DNA of 64,000 nucleotides from Octopus sinensis (lineage: Eukaryota): positions 61,070,001-61,134,000 of the forward strand of contig NC_043006.1 in NCBI RefSeq assembly GCF_006345805.1, read 5' to 3'. The notes beneath the pieces were generated by a model, which worked only from the letters and a program-made list of their open reading frames with translations, had not been told where the DNA came from and made no database searches. The position numbers were made by a program, and so were the translations under genes. How positions within the stretch are numbered: the stretch's first letter is position 1; every line of letters starts with the position of its first letter. This document shows positions 13,417-23,438 of this stretch, piece after piece.

Positions 13417-13625
13417 AGTTAATCCAAACATGAAAGCAAAAAAAACACAACAACGCGAGGACGTGGAACAAATATAGTATTATTGGACGCTCAGGAAAGA
13501 AAGAAAGAATGAGGGTATAACGTTTCGAGCGGAGCTCTTCGTCGGAAACATAGGAAAAGGAAAGATCCAGAGAAGGGAAGACAGAGGAAAAAAAATCGCC
13601 AACGGTACACGTGCGGTCACATTTT
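13417..13625 (-). mobile_element. ~200-bp non-coding element with minimal hammerhead motif (subfamily A, copy 1)
   Basis: Near-identical to 23232-23438 and flanked by TA runs. Minus strand 13550-13515 reads gtttCCGACGA-A-GAGCtccGCTC-GAAACGTTatac. Confidence 0.8.
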
Positions 13626-13875
13626 GAATGTGTATATATGTATATATATATATATATATATATATATATTATATATATATATAATATATATATATATATA
13701 TAATATATATATATATATAATATATATATATATATATATATATATATATATATATATATAATATATATATATATATATGTATATATATATATATATATAT
13801 ATATATGTGTGTGTGTGTGTGTGGTGTGTGTGTGTGTGCATATGTATGTATGTATGTATGTGTGTGTGTGTGTGC

Positions 13876-14295
13876 GTAAGTGGATTCGTAAGCACAGCAG
13901 TGACTGAGTATCAAGAAGCTTACTTTCCAACGACTTGTTTCCGGGTACGGTCCCACTGTGTGGCAGCTTGGCCAAATATTGTGTACTGATTTGGTGGAAG
14001 AAAACAGAAAGAATCCCATCGTATATATTTATATGTCTGTGTGCGTGTATGCGTGTGCATGTGTGTACGTGTATGTGTATTTGTGTGTGTGTGTGCGTAT
14101 GTGTATGTGTATTTGTCACCAACCAACGCTTGACAACCGGTATTGCTGTGTTTACGTCCCCGCAACTTAGTAGTTCGGCAAAATGGACCCATAGAATGAG
14201 TGTCAGGTGTTAAAAAAATAAAAATCCTGAGATCGATTCATCCGACTAAGATGGCCACAGTTTAATAACTACAACAAGTAAAAGAATAAAAGAAT
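13876..14295 (+). mobile_element. tRNA-derived SINE, near full length, decayed
   Basis: Head ..gggtacggtcccactgtgtggcagcttggccaa, internal (TG)n, body ttgacaaccgg..gtttacgtccc..cttagtagttcggcaaaa, tail acaagtaaaagaataaaagaata. Confidence 0.75.
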
Positions 14296-14439
14296 ATATA
14301 TATATATATATATATATATATATATATATATATATATATATATAGAGAGAGAGAGAGAGAGAGAGAGAGAGTCTTTGAGATTGTCTTGTACGAGCATTGT
14401 TATGGTATCAAAATGTGTGTAAATGCCAAATTTCGTTGC

Positions 14440-19488: not shown

Positions 19489-19619
19489 CGTCTAATAGGA
19501 ACAAATTGAACGACACAACTATATTCCGCGCTGCTCTTCTCTGCCACTCCTCGCTGGGCCATAATACTTAAAATGTCTCGCAAAAGGCATGTATTGAGTT
19601 TAAGATCATCTGTGGTCAT
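19489..19619 (-). CDS. Candidate first coding exon of an unidentified minus-strand gene
   Basis: caaacATG start context with an in-frame stop just upstream. 43 open codons (MTTDDLKLNTCLLRDILSIMAQRGVAEKSSAEYSCVVQFVPIR+CG) end at a consensus donor CG|GTGAGT, inside a repeat-poor block. No homology recognised and no next exon found. Confidence 0.35.
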
Positions 19620-22600
19620 GTTTGACGCAGGAATCTTCTAACTGTGTTGTAAGACTATTTTTGCATTTGTTTTTCATCTTCTGACGTTGACGCAGTGAGT
19701 GCTAATTGAGCTATTGCTCTCTATTTCTCAAATCCACTGAACAGACTTCATTGTAGCACTATGATAAAGTGTGTCCTCTACACTATTTCGCATCTATTTT
19801 ATTTCCATGCAGAAAATATCATATTCCACTACCCTAAACAATTGGTATATATGATTTATTCACGTTTAACTTGGTAACGTCATGCTAAACATTACCTATT
19901 TTTATGACAAGAGTCATGAATACAATACCCAATAGTGACTTAAAAATATAGTCATTTTTATTGTTACGAAAAATAACTGTTCATATAAAGAAAATGAGTC
20001 TATATACCCGCTCTTAAATTAGTGAATATAAAGCAGCTAGAATCTTTATTCCAAATTCTGCAATAAAATTCCAGATAACAGATGAGATTCTTTTCATTGC
20101 ATAGTATTTCATACAAATGTAACGAAATACTAATGCGATGAAGAAGTTTCCTTCACAATCGCATTATGCCAGGTTTAAGCAAACTTCGCGACATGACATG
20201 TATTTTGCTGTAAGTTTTGTGATTGAAATTGCTTCGACTAAATCCCGTCTACTAAACTGTGCATGACATGCTGAGGCATGAAGTCCCCTGAGCCATACAT
20301 CATGCGTTAGATATGTGAAACAGGCAACATTTAAATACTATGTTTCACAATATATCTTCTTAGTTTTACTTCTCATATCCACATATACATTACACAGTGA
20401 GATTGCATTTCCAAAATTTAACCTTCTTCTACACCTCCGGAAGCTACAACAAACAACTCAGATGAGTTGTTAATTCGCTACGAATTTAAATGCAACCTAA
20501 AAAGCGTTGTATTTCCATGTCTCTGATGCTGATGCTTTTCAACACACGGACACCTAAATGGGCATCCAAGAGAAGATTATATTATTGTGTAATAAATTTC
20601 CAATCACGAATAACTGCAGAAATAACAACACACTTCAATTCTCAACGTTCTCACTAATTTCTTACACACATGGTTTTGTGGAAATGCAAACAGAACACAA
20701 ATTTTATCAATCACGACAGTGTTAATGTACAGCGAAGTTCAAAGTAACTACCACGTTGCCCTGACTAAATTATTATTCACATATACAACCAGGAACGTAT
20801 TCGATCATACAGAAACATAAAGATATCATTTCAAAGTTAAACTCGTAAACTAACTTATATACGTTCATAAATATTTTTATATAACCATATAATGGCTCTT
20901 TCTGAAATTCATCAAATGTATCAATGCCACGAAAAGTTTTGAAACACTTTCATGGTATTACCATAGCTTGTATCTTCAAAAATTATTTACCGATTCTTTC
21001 TTTTATAATGCTACAGTAAATCGAAAGAATTATTCTTGCATCTTAATAACGCATATAAGTATTAAATTAACTTTAATTTCACGAATTATCAAAATATTCG
21101 CTGATCTATTTACTACAAATGTAAATATGTATCATTAACAAGGTGATGGTTGTGACAGCTCATGGCAAGAAATATACTTGACAATAAACATAGTTGCTCA
21201 CAGATCATGAAATGAATGGTGAGTGAATTTAAAAGATTCAGTGGCTAAGAAGGCTTTTCCATAAGGTAAATTCATAACTTTCAAAGTAGGGTATCGAATC
21301 AAGTTAATTTACTCTGCGTGTGAGTGTGTGTGTATGTGTGTTAATATCTGTTGTATGATTTAATCCGTTTAAATTTAATTGTAAAATTCAGAATGGCGAT
21401 ATTAATTATCAGTGGGCGTACAATTACCGTACTTCTGTCGACGCTCTGAAACCAATTGCTTAACTGATTAATTATTCTCAAGACTCTGATAGGAATTGTT
21501 GACATATATCAAATTAAAATAAATTTAGGTTAATTCAAAGGACCATGAAAATAATTGAATTCCTCACAGTCTAACCTAACTGCTGTAATTCATACCGTGT
21601 TGTTGTCAGATCTACTGAACCAGAATTAAAGGCTATTTCACAAAAATGGTACCTAAATAACGACAGCTGTGATAGGAGCTAAACACTCAAATATTATGTT
21701 AAAAGAACTACCGAAAGGACTAAGTCATCTTTGAAAACATTTCATCGTAATATAAAGTAAGATGGCGGATAAATGAGCATACTGCATTAGCAAGAAGCTG
21801 AACAAATGGAATGAAAGAGCACGAATAATTTTTGCAGTGAATTGTATTCTCATTTTATTCTTATCGATATTAACATTGAGGAGTAGAAACATCAGATGAG
21901 CAGATAAATTTTATTGCGGTTTGTAGGTTTACCTCTCTACGGTCAGAGTTAAACTCCATTTTATGTCAGCACTGATTTCTACTTTTCCTGGACTCTGAAA
22001 ACAAATAAATGAATGAATGAATAAATAAATAAATAAATAAAGTATCGAACATACACACGACTTGTTTTTAGAGTTCAGTAATGCTTGTAAGCGTCGCAGG
22101 TGTTGATTTTCCTGGGACTGTACGATTATATGTATAAATTTTACACACTAGCAGATATGATCAGTGCTAATTGTATCAAGAGAAACATAGCTGTAACTAA
22201 CTATATTCAAAGCAGTAAGTACATATACATACATACATACATACATACATACATACATACATACATACATACATACACAAACGTTCAACTATTTGCCAGT
22301 AAATAAAAAAAAAGTTATATAAATAAACTGCAGCTGAATGCTCTTCATAATCAATTATATTAATTTTCAGATCATTCATTTGGAAATTTTTATTTGAATG
22401 TATTGCTTGAAGAGAGAGCCATGAACAATGCCTTTCACGGCTTCTAGTAAAGAGAAACAACGAGTAAGAAAGCTAAGGAGAAACCACGACACATCATATA
22501 CAGATTGACTCATAATTTTCGTATATTCGCTAATGATTTCTTTTGTATATCTATGCTGTGTCAATAGTTGCTAAAATTGTTTATTCTTTATTTTAATGCT

Positions 22601-23231
22601 ATATTTCATAAATATACGCCTTAATTATTTACTCTTTATTTCACAGATTTGATAATGAGTGGTAAATAATATTGCAATTAAAATCAATTTATGCAGCCCT
22701 TCGAGAAATGGACTGAATGAAAGGGCAGCGACGAAAGGAATTAATGATATGCAAGGCGCCCAGGTAATATCAACGAGTGTATAGGACAAAACTGATTTAG
22801 GTGTTATAAAAGGAAGGTAACATCAGATACGATGAAAAACCATTTTTTAACTATTAGTTAAGTTTATATAGGATTATATCCTATAAATGCTTATAACACA
22901 CTTTACGTGTGTATGTGTGTGTGTGCGTGTGTGTGTGTGTGTCTGTGTGTACGGAGACACAGAAAGAGTGATTGACAGGCAATTATGCAGATAAATAGAT
23001 CAGACATCTCATATATATTATCTGTATTAAATACATCAAAAACAAAATAGGTAGATGTATATACATAGAAAAAGAGACAAATTGTCAGGGAGAAACGTTC
23101 AGGCGATGAATTTTCACGTATAAACATATAGATATTTATATTAATAGGTCCAGTTTACACAGAGTACAAATGACAGAGAAAATTTAAGGGGTGGAAGAAT
23201 GATATATATATATATATATATACATATATAT

Positions 23232-23438
23232 GGTTAATCCAAACAAGAAAGCACAAAAAACACAACAACGCGAGGACGTGGAACAAATATAGTATTATTG
23301 GACGCTCAGGAAAGAAGGAGAGAAGGAGGGTTTAACGTTTCGAACGGAGCTCTTCATCGGAAACATAGGAGAAGGAAAGATCCAGAGAAGGGAAGACAGA
23401 GGAAAAAAAATCGCCAACGGTACACGCGCGGTCACATT
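23232..23438 (-). mobile_element. ~200-bp non-coding element with minimal hammerhead motif (subfamily A, copy 2)
   Basis: Minus strand 23364-23330 reads gtttCCGATGA-A-GAGCtccGTTC-GAAACGTTaaac, with stem I gttt/aaac. Both flanks are (TA)n. Confidence 0.8.

Follow-up and report, generated by a model that had tools for sequence, protein, structure and literature searches.

A lineage-wide U4C change in the hammerhead motif of Penelope-like terminal repeats of Octopus sinensis

The window analysed here is a 64,000-nt stretch of Octopus sinensis DNA (NCBI RefSeq assembly GCF_006345805.1, contig NC_043006.1, positions 61,070,001 to 61,134,000 of the forward strand), and our interest centres on two repeat copies of about 210 bp, A1 and A2, each carrying a motif with the layout of a minimal type I hammerhead ribozyme. 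As the first-pass annotation had reported, both lie on the minus strand, are nearly identical (95.2% over 207 nt), have (TA)n on their flanks, and combine a minimal hammerhead architecture with a C at core position 4 (U4C). They are monomers, 9.8 kb apart, and are accompanied by two plus-strand copies of a second family, B1 and B2 (Table 1). We find that the unit is almost certainly the pseudo-long terminal repeat (pLTR) of a Penelope-like element (PLE) with a reverse transcriptase (RT) and a GIY-YIG endonuclease (EN), and that U4C is a trait of whole subfamilies, kept in later ones including the youngest. A1 and A2 themselves are, we are confident, ordinary dead insertions and inert.

Table 1. 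Repeat copies, predicted motifs and microsatellites in the window (window positions).
Feature	Position	Strand	Remarks
A1	13417..13628	-	most probably solo pLTR (3' end), 5'-truncated, of a putative Neptune-type PLE; likeness to L092/L101 repeats
A1 hammerhead motif, minimal type I	13515..13549	-	predicted from sequence; consensus in supplement of PMC4209133
A1 stem I 5' strand	13549-13546	-
A1 core C3-A9	13545-13539	-	C4 = 13544
A1 stem II	13537-13527	-	followed by GAA and the palindrome ACGU
A1 predicted cut	between 13519 and 13518	-
(TA)n microsatellite at A1 5' junction	13629..13808	.
Shorter TA run	13400-13416
A2	23233..23439	-	most probably solo pLTR, same subfamily as A1
A2 hammerhead motif	23330..23364	-	predicted; core CCGAUGA, 4-bp stem I intact, one G-U in stem II
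(TA)n run at A2 3' junction	23203..23232	.
B1	24409..24610 (ends approximate)	+	probable solo pLTR, second PLE family; core CUGCAGA, family norm CUGUNGA
B2	31704..31900 (ends approximate)	+	probable solo pLTR of family B; core CUGUGGA, 6-bp stem I

The A motif reads GUUU-CCGA(C/U)GA-A-GAGC-UCC-G(C/U)UC-GAA-ACGU-U, followed by the 3' strand of stem I. An extra A follows the core, stem II is GAGC/GCUC with a three-nucleotide loop, and U17 stands after ACGU. Stem I (GUUU/AAAC), which the motif string of the first-pass annotation had omitted, closes with AAAC in A2 and with AUAC in A1, the latter giving a U-U mismatch. Taken together the motif has the features of PLE minimal hammerheads, namely stem I, stem II with a G10.1-C11.1 pair, an extra base after A9, a palindromic 15.2-16.2 and a UH site, whereas the canonical CUGANGA core is lacking in the window copies (CCGACGA/CCGAUGA) and present in an older sister subfamily; the window copies are therefore a variant, not a consensus member, of this class. 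The two B copies deviate at core position 6, not position 4. It had been proposed that AACGUU forms a self-complementary stem III; the pairing palindrome is in fact the 4-nt ACGU, and pairing all six bases would presumably occupy A14 and the cleavage base U17. Hammerhead numbering was compared with the consensus line in the supplement of PMC4209133.

Chance is a poor explanation of such motifs, since a 30-mer with the CCGACGA core has 5,766 exact genome copies, evenly divided between strands, against 0 for its reversed control, and a structural descriptor, run on a blind sample of 1 Mb made up of 100 x 10 kb pieces from fixed positions, matched 12 times, compared with 0-2 times in five shuffles. 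Laid out as minimal type I hammerheads, 94.4% of 144 cells were paired, with 0 of 500 shuffles doing as well and slid controls at 17-47%, the rows being related and the structure drawn from the same rows. Rfam models gave no hammerhead match up to E=10 on window positions 23250-23440 and none among the 150 of 224 whole-window matches listed, and z-scores for folding of the monomers were unexceptional (-0.92 to +0.22).

Several lines of evidence place the unit at the 3' end of an element of about 5-6 kb. A DNA search returned 1,364 candidates. Scoring of 40 gave identities of 93-100%, and these copies share a fixed 3' end with (TA)n after it. Some copies run further 5', and a search with that extension gave 30 loci in which shared coverage, over a (CA)-rich 3' region, drops stepwise upstream and ends sharply at the 3' side, a signature of 5'-truncated reverse transcription. 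One locus contained a fragment of an RT thumb (116 aa, with no Pfam match), which had 9,760 candidates in the genome; 150 were scored, and 10 kb was fetched around 20 of them, 3 adjoining known copies and 17 taken by score or frame length alone. An A-lineage hammerhead, always with C4, stands on the same strand in 16 of these 17 RT-selected loci, downstream at 2.2-5.2 kb in 15 and only upstream in one; the remaining locus has none. Five of the 20 fetched loci carry the hammerhead repeat at both ends, the direct pLTRs of partial-tandem insertion expected of a PLE, with the 5' copy passing directly into the 5' untranslated region and the two repeats of one element 87-98% identical. Repeats beside RT/GIY-YIG frames in two loci (L092 and L101) are 89-94% identical to the window copy.

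Also characteristic of PLEs are the fixed 3' end, whose motif was located in 56 of 60 copies selected by motif (on contig 1, the first 20 CUGA loci and 40 of the first 41 CCGA loci), and frequent 5' truncation. The coding region is one open reading frame (ORF) holding RT and then a C-terminal GIY-YIG, as in endonuclease-bearing (EN+) PLEs, and remains open over 1,008 codons in L094 (G000:C1:74947500-74957400) and L095 (G000:C19:26800500-26810400). Both are full pLTR-ORF-pLTR elements with 98% identical repeats, and to judge from their open frames and near-identical repeats recent activity is suggested. Motifs along the ORF are GLRF at 300, ADKG at 412, YIDD at 655, a CSRSRCNTC linker (CX4CXXC) at 876 and a GIY-YIG-type motif at 916. 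Pfam gave RVT_1 weakly (E=0.002, below the cut-off) and no GIY-YIG match on the query itself; among homologues, PF00078 is present and PF01541 occurs in some. A CX2-5CXXC linker between RT and EN, DKG and an N-terminal GxKF/Y-like motif are found as in Neptune. On its predicted protein the parent is a C-terminal EN+ PLE, of putative Neptune type by a linker that is common to Nematis too. The Naiad clade was rejected because the endonuclease is C-terminal. Compared with the Neptune-type EN+ PLEs of Craig et al. 2021 (PMC8557442), the likeness extends to the single ORF, RT, linker, GIY-YIG and DKG, partial-tandem pLTRs, a (TA)n target bias and a hammerhead near the 3' end, whereas the long (CA)-rich 3' region is a difference. 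This region is 1.5-4 kb long and microsatellite-like (L031-L060; L091-L110), so that the element may itself spread the kind of microsatellite which it shares with other elements as a target.

The two families had initially been taken for lineages of one small free-standing element that hold the same fold with different core changes. The shared fold and differing cores hold up; the single small element does not, as family B is a separate PLE whose ORF ends, found upstream of B repeats in five loci (L148, L232, L246, L251 and L260), are 54-65% identical to those of A. Family B has fixed a core change of its own, A6U.

Both families are abundant in this 2.72-Gb genome. The CUGACGA version of the A 30-mer has 2,085 exact copies, and the mirror CpG change CCAACGA 180. 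Family B is larger, with 13,318 exact copies of its CUGUNGA core; N7 is represented by all four bases across its subfamilies and its stem I is longer, at 4-6 bp. The shared exact scaffold occurs 31,371 times, 4,230 of them with a canonical core, and reversed controls gave 0. BLAST on the blind sample found 3 A and 11 B matches, or about 38,000 A and B copies (95% 21,000-64,000), and we put the number at about 30,000-60,000. Four copies in 64 kb had suggested a very high figure, which by extrapolation would be about 170,000, and both the roughly 31,000 exact scaffolds and the blind sample say less. Both U4 and C4 cores occur in contigs of four organism labels, U4 making up 37, 23, 34 and 32% of depth at window position 13544.

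Insertions sit in TA/CA microsatellites, and the proposed enrichment at (TA)n flanks is borne out: a microsatellite abuts 47 of the 56 located 3' ends, against 10.0% of 20,000 random positions, in keeping with the (TA)n bias of Neptune. At the other end, truncation falls 57-102 nt upstream of stem I in 44 of these 60 copies, at TA/TG-like microhomology (L211-L230, L261-L300). So tight a 5' cluster might be expected if the 210-bp unit were a self-propagating non-autonomous element, retrozyme-like or SINE (short interspersed element)-like, moved in trans by PLE protein; PLE-derived retrozymes have been reported in animals (bioRxiv 10.64898/2026.07.22.740005), and L101 has three pLTRs in tandem. 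We consider this unlikely. The L101 units are split by (TA)n, the 5' breakpoints vary and fall on the microhomology, 13 of 40 CCGA copies reach further into the 3' region with coverage dropping stepwise, and the solo copies follow the same subfamily diagnostics as ORF-bearing elements. Similarly, the likeness to non-LTR retrozymes lies in a short hammerhead-bearing unit related to PLE pLTRs, and the difference in that the copies here are scattered as monomers and belong with ORF-bearing parents; the loci examined showed no clean head-to-tail array, a dedicated genome-wide array search not having been made. In one locus (L218, G000:C1:9865100-9866950) two near-identical CUGA pLTR copies lie inverted, 1.2 kb apart, with a common upstream flank.

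The history of the U4C core can be followed in a tree of 58 sequences and 185 columns, built from 53 of the 60 copies, the 2 window copies and 3 outgroups; the other 7 copies were set aside because their ends were short or missing. It forms a ladder from CUGA/GUU/AAAU through CUGA/GUU/AAAC, CCGA/GUU/AAAC (the window copies) and CCGA/GUC/AAAC to CCGA/GUC/AUAC, with mean terminal branches of 0.040 (17 CUGA), 0.023 (20), 0.024 (4) and 0.009 (11) in ladder order, the youngest mean excluding one outlier at 0.188. U4C probably had a single origin in the source lineage and did not keep that lineage from spreading, as exact copies of the youngest form number 1,088 and this form includes the intact 1,008-codon frames. 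The converse idea, that CUGA copies are products of CpG decay, was rejected, given 2,085 CUGA copies against 180 with the mirror change and diagnostic bases of their own in the CUGA copies. The youngest A subfamily has moved to a GUC triplet, and GUC is the preferred cleavage triplet of hammerheads.

Selection on the motif is visible between subfamilies and not within copies. Within copies, taken from 29 of 30 loci that had been selected on the sequence upstream, the hammerhead changed at 35/1014 positions (0.0345) and flanks at 171/4868 (0.0351), p=1.0, and a second comparison over 57 copies gave 0.052 against 0.055; six of seven stem II changes break pairing and one keeps it. Decay within copies is thus neutral, and the G-U wobble in stem II of A2, present as first described, is a chance single-copy change. 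These same figures bear on the idea that the host has taken the copies into its own service as working ribozymes, which high copy number might encourage; with hammerhead positions changing as fast as flanks, most stem II changes disruptive, and no host exon recognised in the window on inspection by eye, we regard it as highly improbable. Between subfamilies the picture differs. A and the youngest subfamily differ at 2/35 motif and 78/172 flank positions, and A and a side branch at 0/35 and 48/174, the flank figures being inflated by gaps in the pyrimidine tract and the youngest and side-branch groups having been found mostly via protein. The first-pass annotation had offered equal conservation of motif and flanks as grounds for abandoning its view, and such equality is what we see within copies and not between subfamilies.

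Our interpretation is that the repeats are 5'-truncated PLE copies whose hammerhead likely functions in the parent elements, and not in the lone copies, as a ribozyme that is weak and either protein-assisted or dimeric, a reading we hold to be very probable as a whole. We lean slightly towards the more specific prediction that in the source element the ribozyme retains weak cleavage when it has a partner or the protein of the element. Known systems offer precedents. Cleavage by PLE minimal hammerheads is weak and requires either dimers or an added stem III (PMC4209133). In the PLE of the green anole the hammerhead cleaves only with the protein of the element, reverse transcription starts internally, insertion uses mainly uncut RNA, and in vitro the insertion of ribozyme mutants is normal (PMC11167929). 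In the work of Perreault et al. 2011 U4C lowers in vitro activity yet supports a viroid, and A6C gives <0.1 per min (PMC3088659). The predicted hammerhead here is likely weakened by U4C. In the mechanism we propose, the endonuclease would nick a TA-rich target and reverse transcription would start at the pLTR end, some 100 nt downstream of the predicted cut site, so that copying would pass through an uncut or re-joined ribozyme. It would usually halt 60-100 nt beyond the ribozyme, giving solo pLTRs, with rare long runs giving pLTR-ORF-pLTR partial tandems. Because each insertion would span an uncut or re-joined ribozyme, a slow or gated ribozyme would be favoured, and U4C may be tolerated because fast cleavage is not needed for insertion and may harm it. 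A further and tentative step, which we think doubtful, is that the two lineages independently fixed activity-lowering core changes (U4C and A6U) with other catalytic positions held, selection tuning the ribozyme down, or gating it by protein, to keep the RNA whole during reverse transcription. Were this true, CUGA/GUU, CCGA/GUU, CCGA/GUC and CCGA/GUC with a broken stem I would form a natural age-ordered series showing the purpose of PLE hammerheads.

A number of observations weigh against this interpretation. Frames are broken in the elements whose pLTRs are A-proper, and intact ones were seen in the later subfamily only; the C4 node has moderate ultrafast bootstrap support (UFBoot 80, from 185 columns), a single C4 copy falling among the old copies and a single U4 copy among the young; and the gaps noted above enlarge the contrast between motif and flanks. 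Among 16 hand-picked representatives only 1 of 9 pairs shows a double-sided change, and none in stem II. By nearest-neighbour energies, which ignore tertiary contacts, a typical A double hammerhead reaches -7.3 kcal/mol against -24.7 for competing folds, among them a hairpin in which the stem I 5' strand pairs with GAAACGU (AUGUUUC/GAAACGU). Lastly, stem I is mismatched in A1 and, on top of U4C, in the youngest subfamily (U-U). Some of these points favour a reading in which the same element carries a non-catalytic U4C motif, kept for protein binding or landing, as a pLTR promoter element, or as the competing hairpin. The stepwise weakening (U4C, then the stem I mismatch) falls in the very subfamily with intact ORFs, predicted folds prefer the non-catalytic hairpin, the canonical core is missing from 87% of exact scaffolds, other pLTR blocks are conserved as well, and hammerhead mutants leave PLE insertion unharmed in vitro (PMC11167929). 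Set against this, the pattern of variation in the representatives fits a catalyst: C3, G8, A9, G12-A15.1 and U16.1 are invariant, whereas variation is seen at N7 (any base in family B), in loop II and at H17 (U, A or C in all 16). Across families the pair at the outer end of stem I is G-C, C-G or G-U. The shift of the youngest A subfamily to the preferred GUC triplet points the same way. We judge a non-catalytic motif possible and rather improbable, and retain the weak ribozyme of the parent elements as our preferred reading.

It had also been thought conceivable that ribozymes of A and B complement one another by forming heterodimers. Both do contain the ACGU palindrome; in a double hammerhead, however, stem I is intermolecular, and A/B pairs have only 3 bp each and energies of -1.6 to -4.0 kcal/mol, worse than typical A homodimers and B homodimers (-13.9 to -21.5). 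With the window A and B copies on opposite strands and each family having its own partner repeat in cis, we hold complementation to be very unlikely.

Set beside the minimal hammerheads that Cervera and de la Pena 2014 described from metazoan PLEs (PMC4209133), the octopus motifs share the U-rich leader, the extra base between A9 and G10.1, the G10.1-C11.1 pair, a palindromic 15.2-16.2, a short stem I, a site within the pLTR, mostly single dispersed motifs from truncated elements, and a CGUU ending common in the supplement. They differ in the core (CCGACGA in A and CUGUNGA in B against CUGANGA, the core variant there being a compensated U3-A8), in a stem II of 4 bp against 6-8, and in abundance, 31,371 exact scaffolds against about 9,000 in their richest genome by differing search methods. 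The Poseidon element PAc of the green anole (Frangieh et al. 2024, PMC11167929) is similar in having an insertion 3' end downstream of the hammerhead, AT-rich targets and an uncut motif in its copies, and differs in belonging to another clade, in an ORF that starts inside the hammerhead and in that U4C/A6U are not described in the parts of that paper used. Variants at the same positions with low, non-zero activity are U4C in a viroid and A6C in phage Bcep176 (PMC3088659), though these are rare, single, full hammerheads, whereas here the changes are fixed in retroelement lineages, in thousands of copies with no stem III hairpin.

PLE hammerheads, Neptune (TA)n targeting and octopus PLEs have all been published, the last without mention of ribozymes in the portion of PMC13282606 used; what appears new here is U4C as a lineage trait in a PLE. 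Literature searches on hammerheads with octopus and on U4C found nothing on lineage-fixed U4C/A6U in PLEs, which does not establish absence from print. The role of hammerheads in PLEs is stated to be unclear (PMC8557442), and one genome offering four successive natural versions of one ribozyme, plus a second family with another core change, in thousands of copies each, makes a useful test system. With the youngest version accompanied by an apparently intact protein, the question of that role becomes cheap to test. A practical consequence is that CUGANGA-based searches would miss about 87% of the motifs here.

Other hammerhead-bearing families were also seen (L150:-, L140:-, L133, L106, L012, L013), among them one (L150) whose core is the canonical CUGAUGA and whose stem II has 6 bp, another with a UUU loop, and a CCGAUGA motif in a distant family (L013) that is possibly an independent U4C. 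Elsewhere in the window, positions 24631-26552 hold a tandem duplication of a unit of about 995 bp that starts after a (TA)n run, which we take to resemble a decayed DNA transposon remnant. A 118-nt inverted repeat, 97% complementary with its arms 816 nt apart, lies at 41562-42613 and is a possible miniature inverted-repeat transposable element. Fragments resembling the RT of long interspersed elements were recognised by eye at 5341-6018, 14644-15144, 28687-30200 and 39776-40141.

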